This document shows, piece after piece, positions 631-46,142 of a stretch of 46,142 bases of DNA. How positions within the stretch are numbered: position 1 is the stretch's first letter; each line of letters starts with the position of its first letter. A program made the position numbers and the translations under genes. This DNA comes from a virus. Below the pieces are notes generated by a model that saw nothing but the letters and a program-made list of their open reading frames with translations, had not been told where the DNA came from and ran no database searches. The stretch is taken from positions 1 to 46,142 of the IMG/VR virus record IMGVR_UViG_3300002461_000164. One strand, given 5' to 3'.

Positions 631-1521
631 TCACTTCCGGATCGATACCGTACGGGTTCGGATCGACGTCCGGCGCGCTTGTCGCAGCGATCGAAGCGGC
701 GGACGTCGCCGAGAAAGCCGCAGCGGTTGCTCGCCGAACGTGATGATCCCTTGCGCCACGCATCGGCATTGGATCGGCTGACCGGGCGGCAAGCCATCTT
801 CGGCGTCCGTCGGTTGTCCCCATTTGTAGACCTTGCCGTTGCAATCCTGGTGGCGAGGCCGAACGCGTTCATCCCTGGACGTCAGCCACCCATATTCATC
901 GATCCCGGCTTGTTCCTGCCTGATGCGCGTAAGGTCCGACGTCAGCTTGCCGACCTGATCGCGGGCGATCAACTGCGCTCGACTGTCCGCCACGTTGAAC
1001 CGATCCATCAATTCGGCTTTGAGCGTGGCGACGGAATTGCCGGCAAGCTGATTCTTGATAACGATTTGCTCGACCTGTTTGACCACGTCGTCAGAAAGCG
1101 ATTTGATCAGCCCGGTATTTCGAGCGTTCGCAAGCCGCAGATATTCGCCCAAATCTTCCTGATTAACGACGGCCGAAATGTCGATCCCGAGAACGCGTTT
1201 CGCTTGCGCCATGAAGTCGTCAGTGTGCCGGGCGGACTCGAGCGCCAGAATGTTCCCGACCATGTCGCTCGCCGTCCTGGACAGTGCTGCGGCTAGCTGG
1301 CGCAACGTTTCCGTGTCGACGTCCTTCGTCACTCGCCGCTCGGCGGCATAAGCCGGAATGATCTGGTCACGGACGGCCGCGGCGATGGCGCGCAACATGC
1401 GGTTTAGCGCGATCTTGTAGTCGCGTTCCGTTCCCGATCGCGGAAACAAGCCGGGAAGCTTGACGCGACCCGGCCGGCGCCGCTTCCGTAAGACCAGATC
1501 GCCGATGCTGTAACGGATCAC
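631..1521 (-). CDS. Head morphogenesis protein, SPP1 gp7 / Mu F-like
   Basis: 296-aa ORF with RVRPRHQDCNGKVY...PPGQPIQCRCV, typical of the Phage_Mu_F domain. It has a 4-bp overlap with the portal gene. The Arg-rich last 32 codons look non-protein-like (see findings). Confidence 0.85.
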   Translation of the reverse strand: MIRYSIGDLVLRKRRRPGRVKLPGLFPRSGTERDYKIALNRMLRAIAAAVRDQIIPAYAAERRVTKDVDTETLRQLAAALSRTASDMVGNILALESARHTDDFMAQAKRVLGIDISAVVNQEDLGEYLRLANARNTGLIKSLSDDVVKQVEQIVIKNQLAGNSVATLKAELMDRFNVADSRAQLIARDQVGKLTSDLTRIRQEQAGIDEYGWLTSRDERVRPRHQDCNGKVYKWGQPTDAEDGLPPGQPIQCRCVAQGIITFGEQPLRLSRRRPPLRSLRQARRTSIRTRTVSIRK

Positions 1522-3296
1522 GGTTTAAGGTTCTCGAAAATTTCCGGCCCGAGCAAAATTTCGCCCTGGTACGGTCGGATATTCTCCAGGTCGTTGCGCG
1601 CCAGATCGTAAGCGAACGTGATATGTGGTGAATATTCGTCATGGTCCGACGACGCGCCGCGTTCCCGCATTGTCGAGTTGCGCCATTCGAGTTCCGACGA
1701 TGCGAAGTGGATCACGATGGCACCTTTGCCGAATTGCTCGACCAGCCGCGGACCGCCCGCGGGAACCTTCATTTCACTTTCCCACGCCGCGCCCATCTTG
1801 AACCAATCGACCGGTTGCCGGGAATAAATGACGGTAACGTGCAAATCTTCCACAGGCACCGTCACGGCAAAGCCGGCGTCTTTTGCCCATGCGATGATTG
1901 CCGCGCCGTTCAGCACCTTGCGCGACACGTAAAGCGGGCGCGGTTCCATGTCCTTGAACACGGCGCGATCTGTCACGGGCGGCGTCTCCGGCGTCTCCAG
2001 TTCGACCGGCTCGACCGGTCCCGCTTCCGCAATAGCCGCCTCCAGGCCCGGCATAAGACCCAATTCGATGAACTGATTCGGCACAGTCTTTTCGAGTGCT
2101 TCCGCGTTGATCAAATTGGCAGTGACCAGAATATTTGCGGTCTCGGCGTATGTCTTGCCGATATCGGCCTTTTCTTTCGCGCTGATCTGCCACAGCGGCG
2201 CCCATTGGTAAAACATATCTCCCGGCACGGTCCCGAATGTCGACGCCTTCAAAACTTCGTCCAGCGCGTAAATTGACGGCGTGGTTTCGAGCGTCTGACT
2301 AGCCGAAACGGAATCGTAATAGTTCCGCAGATCGCTTTCACCCGTGGAATTCATGCCGCCCGGCGATTGCCCGAGAAAGCGCGTTGCGGGAATATCACAG
2401 GCGCCGCAGACGATTTCCATGAACGCCCGGATCAGTTCCGGCGTCTGTGCGAACGAAACGCCCTTGCGTTCATAGGTTTCGGCGGCATCCTTCAAAATCG
2501 AGCGGTTGATTGCCTTATTGGCGCCGACCAGCGCAAACCGCGACATTAGCCGCCGTTCATATGCCGGATCGGTCAGTTGTGAGAGGAAATTCGGCACGCC
2601 GAACACGTCAACGTTTGCTTCGAACACCAGCGACGCCACGTTTGCCGGGACACTGTCCGCGTTCATGATTGCGGACATGGCGGCGAGCAAAACCGAATCC
2701 CCCCATCCCTGATCTTGCCCGAACGTCAAGCGCGGCTCGGGATTCATGGCGCCGTCAAACAGGGCGAAACGCGACGCGTGAACGCGGTTCCCGTTGACCT
2801 GATAAAATTCCGGCTTGCCGAAGAATTCCGAGACCGGATCGTTGTCGATCGTGTCCGCCTTGACGTCGACCCTGGAAAGCGGCGTGATGTAGCGCAACCC
2901 GCCCTTCCCGATCCTCTTGACGTCCAGCGGCTTTTCGAGCGCAAGCGGATCGTTGCCGGCAATGTCCGACGTCCCGAGAAAGATTGCCGCGCCGCCGAAT
3001 AGCCGCGCCTTAACCCTCGCCTGGAGCATCTTGGCGCGCAAGTTCAGGCGGTTTTCTTCATCGGTCAGCCTGGAAATGTCCGACTTGTCCGCGCTCCAGT
3101 CGCGCCATGCGCGTACGCTATCGTATGCCGGAATGTTGACGATCTTCCGCGCGATCCACGATCCTCGATAAGCGTTCATCAACTGATGATCCGTCATCAC
3201 CGGGAACGTGTAATAGACCGACGCCGCCTTGTCCCGTGCCGGATCGCCGAGCGCGCCTAGAACCGATGCGAGGCCGTCATTTACGCTTTTTTGCAT
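1518..3296 (-). CDS. Portal protein (DUF1073-type) with a C-terminal 2H phosphoesterase (Acb1/LigT-like) domain
   Basis: Large ORF between terL and MuF with a portal-like N-terminal ~440 aa and a Pro/Glu linker. The last ~138 aa carry two HxT motifs (LHVTVIYS and PHITFAY) about 75 aa apart. The alternative start at 3323 lacks an SD; ATG 3296 has AAGGG upstream. Confidence 0.85.
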   Translation of the reverse strand: MQKSVNDGLASVLGALGDPARDKAASVYYTFPVMTDHQLMNAYRGSWIARKIVNIPAYDSVRAWRDWSADKSDISRLTDEENRLNLRAKMLQARVKARLFGGAAIFLGTSDIAGNDPLALEKPLDVKRIGKGGLRYITPLSRVDVKADTIDNDPVSEFFGKPEFYQVNGNRVHASRFALFDGAMNPEPRLTFGQDQGWGDSVLLAAMSAIMNADSVPANVASLVFEANVDVFGVPNFLSQLTDPAYERRLMSRFALVGANKAINRSILKDAAETYERKGVSFAQTPELIRAFMEIVCGACDIPATRFLGQSPGGMNSTGESDLRNYYDSVSASQTLETTPSIYALDEVLKASTFGTVPGDMFYQWAPLWQISAKEKADIGKTYAETANILVTANLINAEALEKTVPNQFIELGLMPGLEAAIAEAGPVEPVELETPETPPVTDRAVFKDMEPRPLYVSRKVLNGAAIIAWAKDAGFAVTVPVEDLHVTVIYSRQPVDWFKMGAAWESEMKVPAGGPRLVEQFGKGAIVIHFASSELEWRNSTMRERGASSDHDEYSPHITFAYDLARNDLENIRPYQGEILLGPEIFENLKP

Positions 3297-3450
3297 TGTC
3301 TCGCGCCCTTTTGTCGGCTGCATCGTGGAGTTGTTCGGCTAGGTGTTTCGTCAATGGTGCGACCGATAGCACGACACCCTTGACCACGCCATGCCGTTGA
3401 ACACTGGCGCCGAGCATCTTCCGACGTTCCGCGCAACTCTTGCATGTCAT
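3277..3450 (-). CDS. Hypothetical small basic protein (57 aa)
   Basis: ATGA overlap with the terL stop (3447..3450). Sequence MTCKSCAERRKMLGASVQRHG... with a Lys/Arg-rich tail. Confidence 0.6.
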   Translation of the reverse strand: MTCKSCAERRKMLGASVQRHGVVKGVVLSVAPLTKHLAEQLHDAADKRARDNAKKRK

Positions 3451-5159
3451 CCGAGCGATTCCGCCGTGTACAGGTTGACGATGGTTATAGGCCAAAACGC
3501 CATAACAATCGAGTCTGCCAAGTTCGGCGACTGCGTACCGTCGGGATTTTTATCGACAATGGTTTTAAGCGTTTTGGTCGAAAGCACAAACACCGCTTGG
3601 GAGAGTTCCGTTAAGATTTGCTCCAGTCGGTGCAAAGTAGACGGCAAGGAAAGCAGTTCACCCGGATCATACGTAATGCCTTCATACATTGCTCGAAACG
3701 TCCGCTCGGCGCGTCTTGCCAGTTGCCACCACGCTTGGGCTTTGATGTTCGCAAAATAATCTTCGTTGAGCGGCGTATTGATATCGTTCGGAATCAAATG
3801 CTGATCCGGATATAGCGGCGGCAACCCGGCGTTCCATGGCACGAACTGCATATGCGCCGGCATTATCTTTTCTTCGATCAGCCGGTTTGATTCAGCCTTC
3901 ACACCCGCGCCGACGCCGACACTGTCATAATTGATTTCGATCGGACCGAACGGCCGGAAGATGCCGACGGCTCGACGTGTCGTCTGTCCGGTATCGCCTT
4001 CACCCCAATGATCGGCCGCTTTCAGAATCGGACCCTTGCGAGCCGCAGCCGCGTTCTTGTCGCCACCTTCGTCCGCGACGTCCAGTGAGCCGAATAGCTT
4101 GCCTTCATCCGTAAAGCCCGGCCAATACCGCTCGGGCAAAATCGTCCCGTCCTGCAGCGTGCGAGCGGGTAGCATCCGCGGCAAATGAGCATCGACACAT
4201 GCCCGCGCCCATTCCGGTTTTATGATGACGCCTTCGATCGACGCCGCATAATCCCGATCGATTTCTTGCGCGAATAGGTGCAGCAATCCGTCATCAACCG
4301 CCTTCTGTCGCTTGCGGTCATACCATTCCTGCGTTTTCTCCGGATGGTCTCGCCAATCCATGATGAAAACGGCCGTCTTGTGCGGATCGATCGGAATTAG
4401 CCGGTTCCACACCACGCCATTTTTACGCTTGCGATGGAAGATATTCCCTGGACCGTTCACGCTCGAAATATCGACCTGGACACGGGTTGTTTCCGACAAC
4501 GCCGCCTCGATTTTCTCCGGCCGTTCGTAGTGCGCGCTTTCGTCCTTGAAATAGATCAGCTTGCGCCCGCCGCGGCCGATATTGTCGCCGGCTTCACCGG
4601 TAATAGACGCTCCCGTCTCCGGGTTGACGATCCGCATAAACGGCATGTGTTCGTCGGTCTTAAAGCCGATCGGCAAGAACTCGGGCGGCAACAGCCGAAT
4701 GATGATCCGCATTTTCTCAAAAATGGAATCCGGATCGCCGAGTTTGTCGACTAGCTGTTCCTTGCGCGATCCCCATCCGACCGATGAACCGTCCAGGAAT
4801 AGCCACAGCCAGACCGAAAACGCGCAACAATCCCATGTTGCGCCCATGTCACGGCATTTCTCGATTAGCGCGCTGGTCTCGACCGCAATTGCCTGCTGCA
4901 GGCAAAGGATCAAATCCTTTTGCTTCTGAAAAAGGACAAACGGCATTGTCGTTAGCTTGTCGCTCTTGCCGGCGTTCCGCGGATCGTACGTGCTGCACCA
5001 ATGCTCAATAAAATCGACTGGTCGCGTCGAATAGTAAGCTTTGGCCCCGACGATCAATGCCGGATTGGCGCGCATCTGGAGAATTTGCCGCTGGCGCCAC
5101 TCGAAAACCTGACGATAATCCGGAGGCCATGCGGGAAAAGCGGGAAAAGGGTTCTTCAT
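3447..5159 (-). CDS. terL: Terminase large subunit
   Basis: 570-aa ORF with a terminase-like N-terminal ATPase and C-terminal nuclease architecture (…TTMPFVLFQKQKDLI…, …FVMDWRDHPEKT…). It sits upstream of the portal and downstream of terS. Confidence 0.88.
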   Translation of the reverse strand: MKNPFPAFPAWPPDYRQVFEWRQRQILQMRANPALIVGAKAYYSTRPVDFIEHWCSTYDPRNAGKSDKLTTMPFVLFQKQKDLILCLQQAIAVETSALIEKCRDMGATWDCCAFSVWLWLFLDGSSVGWGSRKEQLVDKLGDPDSIFEKMRIIIRLLPPEFLPIGFKTDEHMPFMRIVNPETGASITGEAGDNIGRGGRKLIYFKDESAHYERPEKIEAALSETTRVQVDISSVNGPGNIFHRKRKNGVVWNRLIPIDPHKTAVFIMDWRDHPEKTQEWYDRKRQKAVDDGLLHLFAQEIDRDYAASIEGVIIKPEWARACVDAHLPRMLPARTLQDGTILPERYWPGFTDEGKLFGSLDVADEGGDKNAAAARKGPILKAADHWGEGDTGQTTRRAVGIFRPFGPIEINYDSVGVGAGVKAESNRLIEEKIMPAHMQFVPWNAGLPPLYPDQHLIPNDINTPLNEDYFANIKAQAWWQLARRAERTFRAMYEGITYDPGELLSLPSTLHRLEQILTELSQAVFVLSTKTLKTIVDKNPDGTQSPNLADSIVMAFWPITIVNLYTAESLG

Positions 5160-11662: not shown

Positions 11663-11892
11663 CGCCGACAGAACTAGCACGCATCGTCGCGGATGATCTG
11701 CAGGGAACGGCCAAAAGCTTAACCGCTTCCCTGGACGCGTTTGATGCGGAAGGCATGGAAAATAACACCGAGTTTTGCGCCGAACTGGACCAGCTTGTTT
11801 TTCTCTGCGAACAATGCGGGTGGTGGTTTGAACAGTCGGAAATGGCGGACGACTGCGGCGACGATTGGAAATGCGAGGAATGCGGACAATGA
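11659..11892 (+). CDS. Hypothetical zinc-ribbon protein (77 aa)
   Basis: CEQCGWW...CEECG forms a four-Cys motif. ATGA-coupled. Confidence 0.65.
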   Translation: MTPTELARIVADDLQGTAKSLTASLDAFDAEGMENNTEFCAELDQLVFLCEQCGWWFEQSEMADDCGDDWKCEECGQ

Positions 11893-12779
11893 GCGACCTA
11901 TTCAGCCCGCCCGTCGTCACGCTCGGCGACTGCACAATCCACAACGGCGATATGCTCCAGGTTATCGCTGGCATGCCGGAAAACTCGATTGACGGCGTCT
12001 TGACCGATCCGCCCTATCACCTATCGAGCGTGACCAAGCGGCTCGGCAAGCCCGGCTCGGCGCCGATCGTGCACGGAACAGATGGTGCGTACGCCCGAGC
12101 CGCCCGCGGCTTCATGGGCAAGGAATGGGATGGCGGCGACATAGCGTTCCGGCCGGACACCTGGAGAACCGTGTTGCGCGTCATGAAGCCGGGCGCGCAT
12201 ATGCTGGTGTTCGGCGGATCGCGCACCGCGCACCGAATGTTCACCGCGATCGAAGATGCCGGCTTCAACGTGCGGGATTCGATCGCCTGGATATACGGTT
12301 CAGGCCATCCGAAATTGCCAGTGATCGTTCAGCGATTTGACGGTTACGCAATAGCGGTCAAGCCGAGCCATGAGCCTATTGCACTGTTCCGGAAAGACCT
12401 GGACGGCTCGACAAACGAAAACGTGTGGAAATGGGCAACTGGCGCGCTTAATATTGACGGCTGCAGATTTGGCGCCGACAATCGATTTCCCGGGAACGTG
12501 ATCCATGATGGATCGATACTCGGCGACGCGGCGCGCTATTTCTATCACGTCAAGGCGGACCGCGCCGACCGCAACGGCTCCAATCATCCGACTGTCAAGC
12601 CGATCAACCTTTTGCGGTATCTGTTGCGGCTGATCATGCCACCGGGCGGAACGGTCCTGGATAGTTTCGCCGGCACAGGCACAACGCTCGCCGCGGCTCG
12701 CCTGGAGGGTTTCCGATCGATCGGCGTGGAACGTGACGTCGGCTATTTCCTCGATATCAAAAGGAGAATGCAGCAATGA
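11889..12779 (+). CDS. Orphan DNA methyltransferase, N6_N4_Mtase family (beta-class, DPPY)
   Basis: Catalytic LTDPPYH lies near the N-terminus and the SAM motif DSFAGTGTT near the C-terminus. ATGA overlap at 11889. No cognate nuclease is nearby. Confidence 0.85.
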   Translation: MSDLFSPPVVTLGDCTIHNGDMLQVIAGMPENSIDGVLTDPPYHLSSVTKRLGKPGSAPIVHGTDGAYARAARGFMGKEWDGGDIAFRPDTWRTVLRVMKPGAHMLVFGGSRTAHRMFTAIEDAGFNVRDSIAWIYGSGHPKLPVIVQRFDGYAIAVKPSHEPIALFRKDLDGSTNENVWKWATGALNIDGCRFGADNRFPGNVIHDGSILGDAARYFYHVKADRADRNGSNHPTVKPINLLRYLLRLIMPPGGTVLDSFAGTGTTLAAARLEGFRSIGVERDVGYFLDIKRRMQQ

Positions 12780-15089: not shown

Positions 15090-15479
15090 ATGGACAATTT
15101 TAAGCTGGAAATGCGCAACCCTTTTGAGTTCGGCTTTTGCGCGTCATGGCAGAAAGACGGCAACGATTATCATACGTGGATCGACAACCGCGGCGACTAT
15201 GAGGGGAAGCTTTACCGTCGCGTCACGGGCGCCCCGTCGAGTTCCATCAAGACGCTCGACCTTTCCGCCAAGGTCCACACCGCGACCCGTTCAGCACTCG
15301 CCGAGCGCGTGACGCCGGAGACGATCGCCGCCGCTCGGGAAGCTTTCCAACGGCCGTTTATGCTTCCGCTCGACTGTCTGACCGCCCTGACGCCGGACGC
15401 ACGCGCCGCATTCGATCTGTTCATTGAAGCGGCGACGCCGGACGATATCAAGCTAGCCGCGCGCCTCTTGGCAAGTTGA
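15090..15479 (+). CDS. Hypothetical protein (129 aa)
   Basis: AGGAAGGA RBS. Its 3' end converges on, and overlaps by 32 nt, the 3' end of the primase gene. Confidence 0.7.
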   Translation: MDNFKLEMRNPFEFGFCASWQKDGNDYHTWIDNRGDYEGKLYRRVTGAPSSSIKTLDLSAKVHTATRSALAERVTPETIAAAREAFQRPFMLPLDCLTALTPDARAAFDLFIEAATPDDIKLAARLLAS

Positions 15480-17712
15480 CCAGCGATGGCGGCGTGAGGC
15501 TGCGATAGCCTTGCGCCAAAGCATATTCCTCGATTCCGATTGAACGGTTGTACAGCGTCCGATGCACGAACAGCACCGGACGTTTTCCGTCTTCCTCGCC
15601 GATCACCCGCGACACTCTCCCGACTTCCCGATACCCTAAAGACTCGAGCATCGGCGCGACTTTGTTGCGCGCGATCCGTAGTCCTTTTTCCTTCAACATC
15701 ACGTCCAGGGGATAGGACGATATCCAGCCGTTGCGGAATCCGGGTTCTTCCATCTTGATCATGTGCAGAATTTCTTGCTCGATACGGCCTAGACTCGCTT
15801 CAATTGCTTCGTCCGTCGTGCTGGTCTCGGGCGCCCTGTGACAGTCACCGGCCGGGTTCAGATCGGCGGGAATGGCATAATCCATCAGGTAATCCGTGAT
15901 CATTTCATAGCCGCCCGAGCGCGCCCAACGGTAAAGGTTCGGGAAATAGTCGCCGGTCATGCCGTAAAATGACAGATCGTCAAAAACTTGCTGTGCCGTG
16001 AAAAGCACCGCATATCGGCGATCGTTGCGCGTCTTCATGATGGCGTCACGATGGTTTGTGCAAAAAACCCAATTCGCAACGTTATCGATCATGCGCTTTT
16101 CACCGCCCTTGTTCTGGACTTCGATCCGCTCATTCGTGATCCACGGTTTCAGCGAGTCCAGGACTTCCCGGCGCTCCCGCATGTGGATTTCCTCGACGCC
16201 GATAAAAAGCTTGTTTTCCAAGAACGCGTTGAACTTGTTCGAAAGGTCTTCCGCGGCCGGCGAGTGCGAATAGCGGGCGCCGACGGCTGATGACAGATAC
16301 CGCGTGATAAACGATTTTCCGTTTCCTTCCACGCCCTGCAGCACCACCGCCCATTGAAATTTAACGCCAGGATTGCGGATCAGCGCCGCCATGTAAGCGA
16401 GCAAAATATCACGGTCCCGCTGATCGGGCAGAAGCTTTTTCAGGAACTCCACAAACGGCGAGATATCGCCGGGACGCCGCACCACCGGCTGCGGCTGATA
16501 GACATTGATCAGTCCGTTAATGATGACGCCGGGCGCCTCCAACGGACGAAAGCACATATCGAAAACCTTCGGGAAGTTCCATGCGCGGTTCTGCGTAAAC
16601 GCCTCGAATGCGTCGCGGCTCGGGCGCCCGTTGTCGCCTTGCATCTGGAATTCTTTCCCGCCGTACTGAACGCGGAACTGTTCTGGCTTTAGCAGATCGC
16701 CACCGGGCACCATGATTTTGTGCACGGCGCGGATATAGACACAGCCGGCGAACCACTCGACCATTTCGTTGATAGTCAGGAACTCGGCGGGATTGCGCGT
16801 CGCTTGTTCTTCGCGCGGGACATTGTAGACGCCTGTCTGTCCGGATATCGCGTTGCGGATCGTGTCAGCCGCATATTCCGGCCGCGATTCGTATTTCGGT
16901 CGCATCAGCATCGACCGACGGTAAAGCCTATCCATTCTGACCGGGTTTTTACCGGTCCAGAACGCCAGATGCGACATTAGGGCGGCATCGGCCCGGCTGC
17001 GGTCAAACACGTCGCCACCGACCGACGGGAACGCCTGGACAAGCGCCGCGGCGTCGCCGCTCCACAGTTCGGCGAATGTCGCCTTTGTGCCGAACGCGCC
17101 GCCGACGGATTTGGACCGCATAGCGAGCCGCAGCAATTCGTCATCATCGTTCGTGCCGGTCCACTCGGCGACGGCCTTATCTTCGAAAGCCGTCGTCACC
17201 AGTTCGGCCGGCGTTTTTGCCGGGACCATCTGCAACAGCGTCGCGGTGCAGTCCTTCCCGAAATCACCCGTGAAGCCGTGACCTAGCGCCATGAAGCGGC
17301 CGGCCGTGTAGAATTCGAGCCAGTTGCTAGGACGGTTCACGGTCCCGAATCTGTGCTTGCGATCCATCAGCCGGGATTTGTCGCATGTCCCGACGATGTG
17401 CAGTCCGGTTCCGCTTATCGAGATTTCCGCCGCGGCGCCTGCGAACTGTTGAAAAATCGCCGTCGCTTCGTCATTCCAGCCGTTGCCGGATCGGCAATCG
17501 TCCAGGTCCAGGAAAAAGAACGGATCGGCGTCAGTGAAGACGAATCCGACCGGATGGCCCGTCGCGGTTGCCTGATCGTGCGTCTTCCAATTTTCCGGTT
17601 TCAGATGGTCGATCGGAAAACCTGTGACCGCGTCAAACGGAACCTTTTTCGGCTTCTTGCCCGGTTCCGGCACGTAATGCCAGTTGATAAATTGTCGGTA
17701 TGTCCTGATCAT
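15448..17712 (-). CDS. Bifunctional primase-polymerase / SF3 (D5/P4-type) helicase
   Basis: N-terminal prim-pol-like region (FVFTDADPFFFLDLDD...SISGTGLHIV) and a P4-family C-terminal domain with Walker A GVEGNGKS. ATGA overlap with the upstream gene at 17709..17712. Confidence 0.85.
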   Translation of the reverse strand: MIRTYRQFINWHYVPEPGKKPKKVPFDAVTGFPIDHLKPENWKTHDQATATGHPVGFVFTDADPFFFLDLDDCRSGNGWNDEATAIFQQFAGAAAEISISGTGLHIVGTCDKSRLMDRKHRFGTVNRPSNWLEFYTAGRFMALGHGFTGDFGKDCTATLLQMVPAKTPAELVTTAFEDKAVAEWTGTNDDDELLRLAMRSKSVGGAFGTKATFAELWSGDAAALVQAFPSVGGDVFDRSRADAALMSHLAFWTGKNPVRMDRLYRRSMLMRPKYESRPEYAADTIRNAISGQTGVYNVPREEQATRNPAEFLTINEMVEWFAGCVYIRAVHKIMVPGGDLLKPEQFRVQYGGKEFQMQGDNGRPSRDAFEAFTQNRAWNFPKVFDMCFRPLEAPGVIINGLINVYQPQPVVRRPGDISPFVEFLKKLLPDQRDRDILLAYMAALIRNPGVKFQWAVVLQGVEGNGKSFITRYLSSAVGARYSHSPAAEDLSNKFNAFLENKLFIGVEEIHMRERREVLDSLKPWITNERIEVQNKGGEKRMIDNVANWVFCTNHRDAIMKTRNDRRYAVLFTAQQVFDDLSFYGMTGDYFPNLYRWARSGGYEMITDYLMDYAIPADLNPAGDCHRAPETSTTDEAIEASLGRIEQEILHMIKMEEPGFRNGWISSYPLDVMLKEKGLRIARNKVAPMLESLGYREVGRVSRVIGEEDGKRPVLFVHRTLYNRSIGIEEYALAQGYRSLTPPSLVNLPRGARLA

Positions 17713-17951
17713 GACTTGCCAAGCACCGACCATTGCCGCCGCACTTCGGCGCTCGCGCTCGGCGCCGAAACGATCGCCTGCCACAGTACCGGCTTGGTCG
17801 CAAAGTAGTGCCGGACCAATCGGACCGACATTGCGAACTCACACTCGGCGGCGATCCGCAGATGCGTGACCGATACCAACCCGTCACGATTGGCGAGTTC
17901 CACGCCCGTTGCAACGATCGCTCGCTGCCGCTGTTCCGCTGTTAAACGCAT
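17709..17951 (-). CDS. HTH-only TetR_N-like DNA-binding protein (80 aa)
   Basis: RQRAIVATGVELANRDGLVSVTHLRIAAECEFAMSVRLVRHYFATKPVLWQAIV follows the TetR N-terminal HTH pattern. No ligand-binding domain is present. Confidence 0.55.
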   Translation of the reverse strand: MRLTAEQRQRAIVATGVELANRDGLVSVTHLRIAAECEFAMSVRLVRHYFATKPVLWQAIVSAPSASAEVRRQWSVLGKS

Positions 17952-18412: not shown

Positions 18413-18594
18413 TGCTCGGCGTCCTGGTGGAACCGCCAAACGTCGCCGTCTCGGCGCCACTCTCCCGAAACTGTCTCGATACGATCCGGCACGATATCGT
18501 CAGGATCGTAGTCGTATAAGAGCCGCAGTTCGCTTTCCGTCGCGTGCGGCTTCAACTGGTCAAGCAGGTGCATGACTTCCTGACTGTCGCTCAT
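18409..18594 (-). CDS. Hypothetical acidic protein (61 aa)
   Basis: ATGA overlap with the helicase stop (18591..18594). Sequence MSDSQEVMHLLDQLKPHATESEL... Confidence 0.55.
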   Translation of the reverse strand: MSDSQEVMHLLDQLKPHATESELRLLYDYDPDDIVPDRIETVSGEWRRDGDVWRFHQDAEQ

Positions 18595-20285
18595 GTGAAT
18601 TTTTCCCGTACCATTGCCGTTAATTTTAGCGCGTCCGGCGTCCCGAGCGTTTTTGCCGTCGCCACGTCGATCCCGAAAATATGATAAAATCGCCGATACA
18701 TTTCCGAATCTGATCGGCCGTACACGTCGCGGCCGATTCCCGCCCATAGCGCGATACACTCGCGCAATTGCGCCTGTGCTTCCTGACGCTCGCGCCAGCG
18801 CGCTTTGATAGCCAGGACGACATGCGGCGGCGCGTCGCGCGGTATCAGCGCCGGACCGTCTATCCGGTCCACTTCACCACGCATCGCCGCCAGCAACTCG
18901 GGCGAATATTCGGTTAGATCGCCGTCGACAAATGCCGGCGAGCCGCGGCCGATAACAGGCTGTGCCAATCCGCAGAACGGGCAAATCGACGTCACGCGCG
19001 GGAACGATCGGAAACAATGAACACAGGACGTCACCGGAATAACATCGTCATCTGTCGCACCGCGCCGGCCCGCCTCGATATCGTCCAATGACCACAGGCG
19101 CGGCCGATCTGGTGGCCCCTGGTGCCGCACCAGATTGCCGACGTGGTCGACGTAAATCCCGAACGGTTTCGGTCCCGCGGCGATCGAAGCGAGCCGGTCA
19201 GCATCCGTCACGCCGCGGCCGTTCGGATCGAACCCTTGACAATAGATCGGCCGCATCATCCGGCCGAACCGTTGCGCGTATGAGGCATAAGATTGCGTCG
19301 GCGCCCCGTCCTGGACGACTTCCACAACCGGGACGTCGGTTCCCTCGCCGAACAGTCCGACGTTGACCACGTTCAGCAACTCGCCGCGCGCCAGCTTTTC
19401 CAGGACACTAGTCCGAATGTGGTCCGGCGTCTCGGCACTTACCGCAGCGGACGGCACGCCGGCCGAGTTGAACGCCGCCGAAGTCTGAATTGCAATTTCG
19501 ACGTCGACCACAAATGATATCGCGCGTTTTCCAGGCACAAGCGCAATATAGTGCTTGATCATGTCTCCCGTGATGGTCGATTTATGCGCCGCCTTCCGCA
19601 ACGAATCTTGCTGGTAATCTCCCGTTGCGTCCGACGTGAGAACCTTGCTTAGATCGATCGATTGCGGCGGACCGAAACAAATATAATCGGATAGATATCC
19701 ACGGTTCACCAGTTCGCGCGGCGTCGGTCCAAGCACGATTTTATGAAAGACGCCCGATTTTTTGACGCCGAGCGCCTTCCGATCGGCGCGGACCGGAGTT
19801 GCGGTCAGTCCTAGACCATACGCGTTCCGGAAAAGAGCGACCGCCTTTCCCCATTTGTTATCACGCAAGACGTGGTGCGCTTCGTCAATATCCCACAATC
19901 GGATTTGATTAAAATATTGAACTAGCTGTTCAGTGCGGCGGATCAGCGTGTCAACACCCGCGACGGACGCATTTGCATTGTTATTGTGATACGATCGACC
20001 ATAATGCTTGACATGCTGCGTTATGCAGAACTGGATTACCGCTTTTGGTGCGATGATCCTATGATACACGCCATATTTCGCCATCGCTTTCGATATCTGC
20101 GATACAAGTTCTTGCCTATGCGCTATCGCAACGCTTGGCACGGGATTTTCTGAAAAGATCGACCCTTTGAGTTCCGTTTTTCCCGAGCCAGTCGGCGACA
20201 CGGCAAGTACATTCGGCGCACCTGACTGCCACGCTTCGTATATCCCGGCTTTAAGCTGTAACTGATAGTCGCGAAGAACTGGCAT
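18591..20285 (-). CDS. SF2 DEAD/DEAH-box DNA helicase with a C-terminal zinc ribbon
   Basis: LRDYQ..., Walker A SPTGSGKT, DEAH box (WDIDEAHH), and CVHCF...CPFCG. Confidence 0.85.
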   Translation of the reverse strand: MPVLRDYQLQLKAGIYEAWQSGAPNVLAVSPTGSGKTELKGSIFSENPVPSVAIAHRQELVSQISKAMAKYGVYHRIIAPKAVIQFCITQHVKHYGRSYHNNNANASVAGVDTLIRRTEQLVQYFNQIRLWDIDEAHHVLRDNKWGKAVALFRNAYGLGLTATPVRADRKALGVKKSGVFHKIVLGPTPRELVNRGYLSDYICFGPPQSIDLSKVLTSDATGDYQQDSLRKAAHKSTITGDMIKHYIALVPGKRAISFVVDVEIAIQTSAAFNSAGVPSAAVSAETPDHIRTSVLEKLARGELLNVVNVGLFGEGTDVPVVEVVQDGAPTQSYASYAQRFGRMMRPIYCQGFDPNGRGVTDADRLASIAAGPKPFGIYVDHVGNLVRHQGPPDRPRLWSLDDIEAGRRGATDDDVIPVTSCVHCFRSFPRVTSICPFCGLAQPVIGRGSPAFVDGDLTEYSPELLAAMRGEVDRIDGPALIPRDAPPHVVLAIKARWRERQEAQAQLRECIALWAGIGRDVYGRSDSEMYRRFYHIFGIDVATAKTLGTPDALKLTAMVREKFT

Positions 20286-21460: not shown

Positions 21461-21700
21461 ATGAGCGCCCGCGATCACTGGTCGACAGACGATTTGTGGA
21501 GGGATTGGCGGATTCATACCGTCAACGCCGCTCGATTGTCGCACCCATTCAAAAATTACGAAAAGATGCGCGCTAATTCTTCCATGCGGTCACTGATCGC
21601 TCGGCGCCCTGGTCTTTCCGCGCCTGACGAAAACGCCGCTGCGGCGATCGAAGGGCGGACGCCGTTCAGACGCGCCAACACGGCGAGGCCGCGCGCATGA
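21461..21700 (+). CDS. Hypothetical protein (79 aa)
   Basis: AGGGG RBS. ATGA overlap with the downstream nuclease gene. Confidence 0.6.
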   Translation: MSARDHWSTDDLWRDWRIHTVNAARLSHPFKNYEKMRANSSMRSLIARRPGLSAPDENAAAAIEGRTPFRRANTARPRA

Positions 21701-22785
21701 ATTCGCTGCAGCTTCGCCCGTCCGCTTCATATCGCTGGACCCGTTGCGCCGCGTCGGCGTCCTTTGAATCCACCGTGCCGCAAGAACCGGATAGCGACGA
21801 TGCGCGCGAAGGAACGTGCGCCGCATGGGTTGCCGACTGTGTCTTGCGTGGTGACGCGCACAGTGCCGGCGATCTGATCGACCGGAACCACGAAAACGGA
21901 TGGTTGGTAACGCCTGACATGGCGCAACACGTCCAGGGTTATGTTGATCTGGTCAAATCCCGCGGCGGGTTGACCACGTCGGAACAGTTCGTGCGGTTGA
22001 CGGAAAATATTGCCGGCACGCTCGATTCTTCCACCAGCGCAACGGGACCGTGTCTTTTCGTTGATGATCTGAAATACGGATTCAAGCTGGTCGAAGTTTG
22101 GGATTTGCCGCAACTGCTGATCTATGCCGGCGCCGAGTTGATGCGGCTCGGCTTTCCGCCGTCGATCACGCACGTTCAAATCGGCATTTACCAGCCGCGC
22201 GGTTTCCATCCCGACGGCATTTACCGCGTCCAAGTAATGACCGTCGCCGAGTTGTGGGAAAAAGTGCAATGGATCGTCGCGCGCTCGCACGAATGCCTTG
22301 CACCGCAGCCGATCGCGACACCCGGCCCGCAATGCACCGATTGCCGCGCCGCTTCGTCCTGTTACGCGCTTCTAGGCACGATCGCCGCGCAATGGTCCGT
22401 GCTGCAGGATCACCGTCAACGGCGCATGACTGCGGCGGAAGCGGCGCAACAATGGCTGTTCGTGGAAAACCTGGAAAAGATGGTCAAGGCGGCAAAATCC
22501 GCCTTGGACGCCGAGATTTCCGCGCGGATCAAGTCGGAACATTTTCCCGGTATTTACATGAAGCCGCGGACCGGGCATCGCAAATTCAAATATCCACCTG
22601 AAACCATCCGGTTCCTGACCGGCGTCGATCCGTTCGCCCGCGTGGCAATGACGCCGCCCGAACTGGAGCGCGCGGGCGCGGATGTTGGAATCGTCGCGGC
22701 TATTGCCGAGACGAATATAATCGGTCACAAACTCGACCGGTTAGGACCGAACCAAGTCAACAAAGCTTTCGCGAAAGGGAAGTGA
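21697..22785 (+). CDS. PD-(D/E)XK (Cas4/DUF2800-like) nuclease with Cys cluster
   Basis: N-terminal [15 protein letters not shown], a core FVDDLKYG...LVEV, and C-terminal [10 protein letters not shown]. This resembles the Cas4-like four-Cys arrangement. Confidence 0.65.
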
Positions 22786-44650: not shown

Positions 44651-45754
44651 TTAATTCTTCCATGCGTTCTGGAGCGACTGTTCCCATGCGTCCTGGGTGG
44701 CGATCACACCGTCGGCGACGGGCGCCGGCCGCTGGAAAGACTGGCGGAACGGATCGGATACCGGCGCCGCGCTGGCGTCCTTGGTGGCGGCGAGAAACGC
44801 GCCGTCGATCGCGGCCGGCGCCATGTCCTTCGCGAATGCCTCGCCGTACTTGGCGACCACGACGGCGCGGCGAATATCGGCGTCAGCCATGGACTCGAAT
44901 TTGCCGTCCTTGACGACGGACGAAGCGAGCGCGACCAAATCGGCGCGGTCCTTGACCATCTTCGCCATGCCTTCCGGCGTCGGCAGCTTGTCGGTCAGTT
45001 CCTTGACCTGGACTTTCAGTCCGCCGATTTCGGTATCCTTGGCGGCGAGCGCGGCGGCATGATCGGCCGCGGTCTTGGTGACGGCCGCGGCACTGTCGGA
45101 AAGCTGACGCTGCAGGCGCAAAATGACCGCCTCCGCCATGTCGGTAACTTCGATCGGCATTCCGTCGTACTGGATCAGCTTGGTTGCCACGGTCTTGATT
45201 CCTTCATCCTGTTGAAACTCGCCGCCCCATCCGTCCCCGATCCGGCACGACTTGCCGGCTCGACCACGCGTCACGATGGCGACGTGATTTGCTCGAATAT
45301 TGCGCTGTTGCGCGTCGAAAGCCTCGCCGGATTCCGTGACGCCTGGAGTGAAGTCCAGATCACAGGTATAACCCGCCGACAGTTCCCGCTTTCCGGCAAT
45401 GACGTCGGCAATCGCCGCGGCGTCACTGACCATCAGCGGAACACGAATGAAACGATCCTTTGCCGCGACTTCGTCCGCAGTCTGACCGACCGCAACCGCT
45501 TTCCAGTTGTCCGCCGTCACCAGATCGGCCGGATGATCGTTCGTCACCGGCCGATGCGCAAAAGATGCAAGGGTGGCGTCGCTGTGAACTTCCGTGGCGG
45601 ACCGGAAAACGCGGACCGTCGGGATTTCCGGCTTGCCGACTTCGTATCCGGCGTAAATCTGAATTCCGGTCCGCGCCACATTGGCATCGACCAGCAAGGC
45701 GCCATCAGCGCGCCGCTTCGTTCCTGTGATCGTGACCGAATCCGTAAAATTCAT
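44651..45754 (-). CDS. Scaffold-like protein (DUF2213-type)
   Basis: VARTGIQIYAGYEVG...FRSATEVHSDATLASFAHRPVTNDHP...ELSAGYTCDL pattern, with an Ala-rich helical C-terminal half. Confidence 0.7.
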   Translation of the reverse strand: MNFTDSVTITGTKRRADGALLVDANVARTGIQIYAGYEVGKPEIPTVRVFRSATEVHSDATLASFAHRPVTNDHPADLVTADNWKAVAVGQTADEVAAKDRFIRVPLMVSDAAAIADVIAGKRELSAGYTCDLDFTPGVTESGEAFDAQQRNIRANHVAIVTRGRAGKSCRIGDGWGGEFQQDEGIKTVATKLIQYDGMPIEVTDMAEAVILRLQRQLSDSAAAVTKTAADHAAALAAKDTEIGGLKVQVKELTDKLPTPEGMAKMVKDRADLVALASSVVKDGKFESMADADIRRAVVVAKYGEAFAKDMAPAAIDGAFLAATKDASAAPVSDPFRQSFQRPAPVADGVIATQDAWEQSLQNAWKN

Positions 45755-45915: not shown

Positions 45916-46142
45916 AAGCCCTGGAGAAAACCATGAAATCCCTGATCATTCTTGCCGCTTCGTTCCTTGTCATTTCGCCCCGTTCCGGCGACACCCCGGC
46001 ACCGTCCGCGCCGAGCGCGCCGTCTGTGTCGAGCGCGGCAAGTTCCGGCGTCCAGTCGTTCACAGCTTCTCGCAATGCCCGCAAGCCGGCCGCGCTGATC
46101 TTGCCGTAAAACGGCTTTCCCGTCGGCGAGAATAAGCCATCA
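45914..46142 (-). CDS. 3' part of the junction-spanning gene (46049..46142 duplicates 1..94). Stop TAA at 45916..45914.
   Basis: Hand translation continues ...NDWT|PELAALDTDGALGADGAGVSPERGEMTRNEAARMIRDFMVFSRA* in phase with the frame leaving base 1. Confidence 0.5.
   Translation of the reverse strand, partial: DGLFSPTGKPFYGKISAAGLRALREAVNDWTPELAALDTDGALGADGAGVSPERGEMTRNEAARMIRDFMVFSRA
46049..46142. repeat. Terminal direct repeat, right copy (exact copy of 1..94)
   Basis: Identical to bases 1..94. Confidence 0.97.

Follow-up and report, generated by a model that had tools for sequence, protein, structure and literature searches.

What is an enzyme domain doing at the end of a phage portal protein? 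The question is raised by IMGVR_UViG_3300002461_000164, a viral stretch of 46,142 bp (hereafter the window, by which we mean the whole of this DNA), in which one open reading frame (ORF) of 601 residues on the minus strand (1518..3323 in the ORF list) encodes a portal and, behind it, what is almost certainly an Acb1-family 2H phosphodiesterase domain. An earlier note on this DNA had proposed that such a domain might erase cyclic-nucleotide immune signals from within the virion; the span it gave, 1518-2030, corresponds to residues 432-601 plus the stop codon. We give slightly better than even chances to the reading that the protein is a portal-tethered, active eraser of cyclic-oligonucleotide signals that is carried as head cargo. 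Gene callers start the ORF at M10 (nt 3296), which yields 592 residues and is likely the real start, and an identical 592-residue protein (P0035) is present on ENA contig ERZ922814. Residue numbers below follow the 601-residue ORF.

Portal body, tether and 2H domain

The N-terminal part of the protein is a portal of the PF06381/DUF1073 type, an identity supported on three tests: a family hidden Markov model match, a portal fold and a gene position beside the large terminase. The portal core of clip, stem and wing (residues 47-397; 2133..3185, minus strand) matched PF06381 Phage_portal_3 (formerly DUF1073; the TIGR01555 HI1409 family) in Pfam at E 9.5e-93 with 311 bits, and TIGR01555 was matched at E 3.7e-73 with 247 bits (cut-off 196). 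Residues 9-591 were matched by PHROG 146 'portal protein' (E 1.3e-132), a profile of 587 positions that covers the appended domain too. An AlphaFold2 (AF2) model of the full-length protein, built on 120 sequences, has a confident portal body, helices continuing to residue 434, a low-confidence segment and then a confident 2H domain. In a Foldseek search the match of this model to the Pam3 portal (8hds_A) had E 2.2e-32 and 44% identity; the portals of E217, T1 and XM1, from both myophages and siphophages, were matched as well. Helices are predicted at residues 382-401, 407-421 and 427-434, and the C-terminal helices of the crown/barrel region (residues 398-434; 2022..2132, minus strand) end with a conserved PGL motif, of which P425 and G426 are invariant and L427 nearly so in 120 homologues.

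The portal helices are followed by a tether of about 27 residues (435-461; 1941..2021, minus strand; GPVEPVELETPETPPVTDRAVFKDMEP) that is disordered, acidic and rich in proline; the acidic/Pro-rich string EAGPVEPVELETPETPPVTD stands at residues 433-452. The predicted local distance difference test score (pLDDT) of the full-length model falls below 50 at residues 442-457. Linkers of homologues measure 24-105 residues (median 40), are rich in A, E, D, Q and P and share a mean pairwise identity of 27%. Because it is disordered, poorly conserved and variable in length, we regard the linker as a mere tether.

The C-terminal domain (residues 462-601; 1521..1940, minus strand) contains two H-x-T motifs, H495-V-T497 (1833..1841, minus strand) within EDLHVTVIYS (residues 492-501) and H567-I-T569 (1617..1625, minus strand) within YSPHITFAYD (residues 564-573). 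These are the sole H-x-T motifs in the protein, and the only other H-x-[ST] is HAS at residue 182. Both of these strings and the linker had been quoted in the earlier note and all are present in the ORF; the two motifs that it had placed about 75 residues apart are indeed there, at a measured His-His spacing of 72. A Pfam search with the whole protein matched PF23474 (Acb1) at residues 463-600 with 130 bits against a cut-off of 27 (E 5.5e-38), spanning positions 2-138 of the 144-position profile, and with the domain alone the match rose to 135 bits (E 1.6e-39). Generic 2H families stayed below threshold for the domain in Pfam, with PF13563 2_5_RNA_ligase2 as a weak secondary match of 17.7 bits. 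In a sequence search of the PDB the domain matched FBB1 Acb1 (7T26) at E 1.8e-8 and the Pam3 portal gp3's C-terminus (8HDS) at E 7e-36. No NCBIfam model matches the C-terminal domain alone, and PHROG labels the domain's family 'RNA ligase' (PHROG 755).

An AF2 model of residues 462-601, built on 35 sequences, reached a mean pLDDT of 94.5, and its best PDB match in Foldseek was FBB1 Acb1 7T26 (template modelling score, TM, 0.80/0.82; E 3e-9), followed by the phosphodiesterase of Burkholderia phage BCSR5 (E 2e-6) and then E. coli LigT (E 1e-4). Top structural matches in BFVD include UniProt entries named 'Anti-CBASS protein Acb1', CBASS being the cyclic-oligonucleotide-based anti-phage signalling system. 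The structure prediction against Acb1 and LigT that had been suggested as a check thus returned a 2H fold, with FBB1 Acb1 as the best match and LigT matched also. As the Pfam score, the PDB search and the AF2/Foldseek fold agree, a chance pair of motifs is excluded, and the 2H fold, the Acb1 family and the fusion to a portal behind a Pro/Glu linker all hold as first described (PF23474; pLDDT 94.5; 7T26 at TM 0.80).

A full-length search gave 2,115 significant matches, and all of the 120 listed carry both PF06381 and PF23474, which bears out the association of Acb1 with DUF1073 mentioned in the earlier note. Named homologues among those listed come mostly from Rhizobiales genomes or prophages and are called 'anti-CBASS protein Acb1 family protein', 'DUF1073 domain-containing protein' or 'phage portal protein' in NCBI and UniProt. 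The fusion is also present in cultured phages, namely Pseudomonas phiPSA1, PSA-2T and MR15, Synechococcus phages, Pam3, Rhizobium RHEph04-06 and the RHph series, Sinorhizobium HMSP1-Susan and Aminobacter Erebus. When 1.84 billion cluster representatives were searched with the domain, 1,900 matches were found, and most of the best 150 of these are about 600 residues long with the domain at the C-terminus.

These counts bear on the possibility that the fusion is an artefact in which a sequencing or assembly frameshift joined two genes. A separate short protein is annotated at this position in some database entries and phage records, as such an artefact would predict. Against this, the reading frame is continuous, the same single ORF is found in 120 of 120 listed among more than 2,000 homologues, from many assemblies and from cultured phages, the Pam3 gp3 chain in the PDB is 621 residues long, and several of the short entries prove to be incomplete gene calls in which the region of the portal PGL motif is retained. 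We therefore reject an artefact, to which we attach next to no probability. Domain-only matches were likewise considered as free genes, and this was set aside for several of them, which are partial calls of fused portals with the PGL region still present; P0001, for example, matches the C-terminus of P0053, the two contigs being equally long. Genuine standalone Acb1 genes do exist (in the related metagenomic phages L005 and L007).

The fusion is accordingly not new: it is abundant and automatically annotated, and the hypothesis that it is packaged and injected was published in 2022 (PMC9503650). In that paper Iyer, Burroughs, Anantharaman and Aravind proposed that 2H domains fused to portal or MuF proteins are packaged and injected to destroy immune nucleotides, listing SMODS, cyclic mononucleotide and CRISPR signals as possible 2H targets (PMC9503650). 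A hypothesis on the meaning of the fusion, which the earlier note had described as not established as far as its author knew, had thus already been published as an argument from comparative genomics (PMC9503650); our literature search found no experiment on it. Hobbs et al. 2022, including the supplements, make no mention of portal fusions (PMC9117128). Annotation traps were also noted, among them the PHROG 755 label 'RNA ligase' for the Acb1 family. Whole portals have been named 'anti-CBASS protein Acb1 family protein' in NCBI and UniProt automatically and without evidence, and the standalone Acb1-like gp129 of Roseobacter phage DSS3P8 (L003:2992-3444) is labelled 'prohead protease, HK97 family'.

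Conservation of the catalytic machinery

Residue counts refer to 120 fused sequences, those of the window protein and of the 119 homologues nearest to it, with the C-terminal domains aligned to FBB1 Acb1. The Acb1 catalytic tetrad is H44, T46, H113 and T115 (Hobbs et al. 2022, PMC9117128); the second motif is H114/T116 in the FBB1 sequence and H113/T115 in the numbering of that paper. The first motif of the window protein aligned to H44/T46, with His at the H495 position in 120/120 and Thr at the T497 position in 119/120. The second aligned to the second H-x-T of FBB1 Acb1, with His at the H567 position in 119/120 and, at the T569 position, Thr in 115/120 and Ser in the other 5. FBB1 Y12 corresponds to Y465, which is kept in 119/120, and FBB1 E141 corresponds to E597; Y12 belongs, with W74, F107 and the lid residue W147, to the aromatics of Acb1 that stack on nucleobases. 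Mean pairwise identity is 63% over the Acb1 domain, 59% over the portal core and 27% over the linker, and this ordering indicates strong selection on the enzyme domain. On this conservation the domain is very probably catalytically active.

The same figures bear on a structural, non-enzymatic role, in which the domain would serve head assembly or DNA packaging as a plug, a headful sensor or a nucleation surface and its Acb1 ancestry would be incidental. In its favour, the domain would lie where the portal channel opens inwards, its conservation equals that of the portal core, and in other phages packaging is affected by extensions of the portal C-terminus. A purely structural role would not lead one to expect that both catalytic His and both Thr/Ser residues are kept in essentially every homologue, nor does it fit well with a tether that is disordered and highly variable in length. 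Related portals that lack the domain, or that carry unrelated enzymes in its place, further indicate that it is not needed for portal function. We consider a structural role very improbable.

A proposed head-cargo role, its probable substrate and possible delivery

The company that the domain keeps in related phages also argues for a link to the head interior. In the architectures examined, the Acb1 domain of relatives is always fused to, or encoded among, head-interior proteins. It is found in fusions with DUF2213 (P0157 and P0163), together with NUDIX in polyvalent proteins of 1,500-1,750 residues, and between a portal with an insert of ~350 residues and a Zeta toxin (cluster representatives with alternative Acb1 architectures: P0157, P0163, P0239, P0293, P0199 and P0186). 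In two related metagenomic phages (L005:2989-8062 and L007:3074-7697) a PF06381 portal of 963-988 residues is instead fused to an Alt-like ADP-ribosyltransferase (PF03496), and the Acb1-like protein is a separate gene of 188-196 codons located exactly between portal and DUF2213. These separate proteins have their own N-terminal extension of ~50 residues, which could be a capsid-targeting signal. Since Acb1 moves among head-interior carriers and an ADP-ribosyltransferase takes the same place, the portal C-terminus behaves like a site at which one effector domain can stand in for another. Judged from gene arrangement, the genomic context supports a head-cargo role.

The mechanism that we favour would run as follows. 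From portal architecture, the crown/barrel end would face the capsid interior, placing 12 enzyme copies per virion inside the head beside the DNA end; in Pam3, gp3 is described as barrel, crown, wing, stem and lastly clip, going outwards (PMC9942802). By homology to T4 and FBB1 Acb1, the enzyme would cleave 3'-5' bonds in cyclic di- and trinucleotide immune signals of the CBASS type without metal, via a 2',3'-cyclic phosphate intermediate, and abortive-infection signalling would thereby be blunted. Genomic context suggests that the head maturation protease probably detaches the domain from the portal and that the domain exits with the DNA, in which case pre-made enzyme would be in the host ahead of all phage gene expression. 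Late in infection, before assembly, this polypeptide would be active in the cytoplasm as well. The mechanism and the anti-CBASS effect of Acb1 itself are established (PMC9117128), and a precedent exists for a virion ejectosome protein that blocks CBASS (bioRxiv 10.1101/2025.07.23.666291).

Several points weigh against this reading, some at the level of the substrate pocket and others at that of delivery. Substrate-contact residues of FBB1 Acb1 are kept only in part: the equivalent of F107/Y108 is a His (H561), the alignment at FBB1 residue 74 (W74) is ambiguous, and the C-terminal lid Trp (W147/148) is lacking, in the window protein and altogether in 33 of the 120 fused sequences. LigT-like phosphodiesterase folds are, moreover, documented to switch substrates between messengers (PMC11410667). 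A domain of 16 kDa must pass a channel of ~24-40 Å, presumably unfolded (Pam3 dimensions, PMC9942802). The Pam3 virion model (8HDS) has 442 of 621 portal residues and the domain is absent from its coordinates. No conserved cleavage site was recognised in the linker of homologues, and a search of the literature for experiments on portal-fused Acb1 or 2H domains found none. The portal stays with the empty capsid after ejection, and delivery therefore needs proteolytic release.

With regard to the pocket, the protein ends in ...GPEIFENLKP and stops five residues after GPEIF, the last strand (the final five codons are at 1521-1535). The lid Trp is kept in 87/120 sequences, within a conserved EDW tail, and the 33 'lidless' sequences include the nearest relatives of the window phage. 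In FBB1 Acb1 this C-terminal Trp lid closes over the ligand and stacks on the base (PMC9117128). Read from the alignment, then, the catalytic machinery is intact and the substrate pocket differs from those of characterised Acb1 enzymes, and the lidless C-terminus may alter the substrate range.

These differences might mean that the same fold acts on another substrate, such as RNA 2',3'-cyclic phosphate ends (in tRNA repair against anticodon nucleases), 2'-5' oligoadenylates, the cyclic tetra- and hexaadenylates (cA4/cA6) of type III CRISPR systems, or signals derived from ADP-ribose (ADPR). Besides the missing lid Trp and the His in place of F107, such a substrate would be in keeping with the weak PF13563 match, the presence of LigT among the structural matches, the 'RNA ligase' label of the PHROG family, the retargeting of LigT-like phosphodiesterases between messengers (PMC11410667) and the range of signals (SMODS, cyclic mononucleotide and CRISPR) listed as possible targets by Iyer et al. 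(PMC9503650). The Acb1 match nevertheless lies far above those of the generic 2H families (135 vs 17.7 bits), and in structure the domain is nearest to Acb1 (7T26) and to a phage phosphodiesterase deposited with chains under the name 'Anti-CBASS protein Acb1'. Hobbs et al. tested nine further Acb1 homologues, and every one of them cleaves 3'3'-cyclic GMP-AMP (3'3'-cGAMP) and cyclic triadenylate (cAAA) (PMC9117128). No gene for an RNA ligase or kinase partner was noticed in the window. We hold a different substrate to be improbable, though not negligibly so, and by homology rather expect that the domain acts on a cyclic-oligonucleotide substrate of the CBASS type.

Whether the enzyme reaches the next host is a separate matter, and for actual delivery of the domain we estimate a chance a little below even. 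The absence of the domain from the Pam3 model may mean that it is flexible, or that it is cleaved and lost. The E217 portal gp19 was modelled only for residues 97-528 of 765, and the published cryo-electron microscopy models of Pam3 and E217 thus both omit appended portal C-termini, which would fit a retained but flexible domain as well as a cleaved one. The Pam3 paper leaves the 2H domain unmentioned and its mass spectrometry concerned disulfides only (PMC9942802); no peptide-level virion proteomics for Pam3 was found in the literature. A candidate for the enzyme that frees the domain from the portal is the DUF2213/Pa193_gp24-type head protein of the window (44651..45754, minus strand; PF09979), which matched PHROG 530 'head maturation protease' at E 2e-90. 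A D-A-x-P-R motif before the first strand was considered as a cleavage motif and rejected; standalone proteins have it too and it is probably part of the fold.

Free enzyme could also arise by translation, at least as far as the nucleotide sequence of the linker suggests: an internal start there could give a protein of 143-152 residues. An in-frame GTG at codon 450 (1974-1976) has GGAG 9 nt upstream, and an in-frame ATG at codon 459 (1947-1949) has AAGGA 1 nt upstream, which is poor spacing. The GGAG before GTG450 comes from the codons for ETPETP and may be a coincidence.

Another possibility is that the enzyme works late in the cytoplasm and is never delivered, the fusion ensuring that it is produced together with late structural proteins as CBASS-type signalling builds, with the copies in the portal ring trapped and spent. 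The gene lies in the late head operon, probably translationally coupled to that for the MuF-like protein, and the standalone Acb1 versions of relatives are also located within the head module. No cleavage site was recognised, no ordered domain is seen in the Pam3 map, and it is established portal biology that the portal remains with the capsid after ejection. Co-expression, however, needs no covalent fusion, and the repeated independent attachment of the domain to the portal C-terminus, to the DUF2213 N-terminus and to polyvalent proteins points to packaging. The alternative domains at the same position (ADP-ribosyltransferase, Zeta toxin, NUDIX) are, in addition, of the kinds proposed to be packaged and injected (PMC9503650). 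We regard a purely late cytoplasmic role as unlikely, if somewhat less so than a change of substrate.

The portal-tethered signal eraser could, in a more specific form, be severed from the portal as the head matures and leave with the DNA, and have a lidless pocket that accepts cA4/cA6 or other larger rings; this combination we think doubtful, at about the level of the substrate alternative above. If the domain is cleaved and ejected, each particle would bring ~12 pre-made enzymes, by our arithmetic roughly 20 nM in a 1-fL cell, and this would be the first demonstrated virion-delivered enzyme that erases immune second messengers. Delivery with the genome could let phages neutralise CBASS-type signalling before phage gene expression, would revise the view of timing in abortive-infection defences and would place a catalytic signal eraser among the anti-defence proteins that phages inject. 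Because the architecture is very common, and is shared by cultured Pseudomonas syringae, Rhizobium and cyanobacterial phages, a result on one phage would generalise widely. The window protein itself is a confident annotation and not a discovery.

Genome context and known systems

When rotated and reverse-complemented, the window corresponds to ENA contig ERZ922814 k127_100474, which comes from an activated-carbon metagenome. An exact direct terminal repeat of 94 bp (1-94 = 46049-46142) indicates that these 46,142 bp make up the whole genome of a phage, circular or terminally redundant. The head module is on the minus strand and runs across the window ends in the order small terminase (TerS), large terminase (TerL), portal, MuF, DUF2213, cement, major capsid protein; the tail genes that follow it are of the Pam3/E217/phiTE-like myophage type, and the phage is a small myophage of that type.

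The small terminase gene (PF03592; 5844-6380, minus strand) lies upstream of the large terminase gene (3447-5159, minus strand), which in turn is directly upstream of the portal gene. The large terminase subunit had no match at E<=1 in a Pfam search and a modest match to PHROG 2 (E 3.6e-20), which together mark it as a divergent TerL. Downstream of the portal, the MuF-like minor head protein (631..1521, minus strand) matched PF04233 at E 5.9e-15 and PHROG 324 'head morphogenesis'. The GTG start of its gene overlaps the portal stop codon (GTGA, 1518-1521), an arrangement that suggests translational coupling of portal-Acb1 and MuF. Loss of the portal stop at this GTGA junction would give portal-Acb1-extension fusions, as are found in some relatives.

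Outside the head and tail genes, an NrS-1-like primase-polymerase with a DUF5906/VapE helicase domain, a ResIII/DEAD helicase, DUF2800 and an N6/N4 DNA methyltransferase make up a replication/modification module (15448-17784, minus; 18591-20285, minus; 21697-22785, plus; 11865-12779, plus). The methyltransferase may counter restriction.

Among known systems, the Acb1 of T4 and FBB1 (gene 57B; 7T26/7T27; PMC9117128) shares with the window domain the PF23474 family, the compact 2H fold (TM 0.80), the HxT/HxT tetrad and the Tyr equivalent to Y12. The T4/FBB1 enzyme is, however, a free protein of ~150 residues encoded beside ipI, whereas Acb1 in the window forms the C-terminus of the portal; identity between the window domain and FBB1 Acb1 is ~26%, and the window domain lacks the W147 lid and has a His as its F107 equivalent. 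LigT/ThpR (5LDM) and the BCSR5 phosphodiesterase (9Q2Y/9Q2G) share the 2H fold but are larger than the window domain and only 14-21% identical to it, and the BCSR5 enzyme has a lid with open and closed states.

At the level of the whole protein, the closest solved relative is gp3 of cyanophage Pam3 (8HDS; PMC9942802), which has the same domain order and an identity of 44% in the portal body and of 43% in the C-terminal domain (E 7e-36). The database family variously named 'anti-CBASS protein Acb1 family protein', DUF1073 or TIGR01555 HI1409 has the same two-domain architecture as the window protein. T4 uses a cleavable capsid-targeting sequence, whereas the carrier in the window phage is the portal itself. 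What the window protein shares with packaged effectors in general (T4 Alt, internal proteins, MuF-fused toxins and polyvalent proteins) is an effector domain physically joined to a protein of the head interior, with its gene in the head module (PMC9503650).

The portal-2H and MuF-2H fusions of Iyer et al. 2022 (Viruses 14:1977, PMC9503650) have the exact architecture and come with the packaged-and-injected hypothesis, put forward there in a one-sentence comparative-genomics statement without structure, residue analysis or experiment and with no discussion of the window phage. Gp15, the ejectosome protein of the ICP3/T7 type, is a virion protein that goes in with the DNA and counters CBASS (bioRxiv 10.1101/2025.07.23.666291), as is proposed for the window domain. 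Gp15 has an unrelated fold and inhibits the CapV effector stoichiometrically, with no degradation of the signal (bioRxiv 10.1101/2025.07.23.666291), whereas the portal-borne domain would act as a catalytic eraser of the signal.

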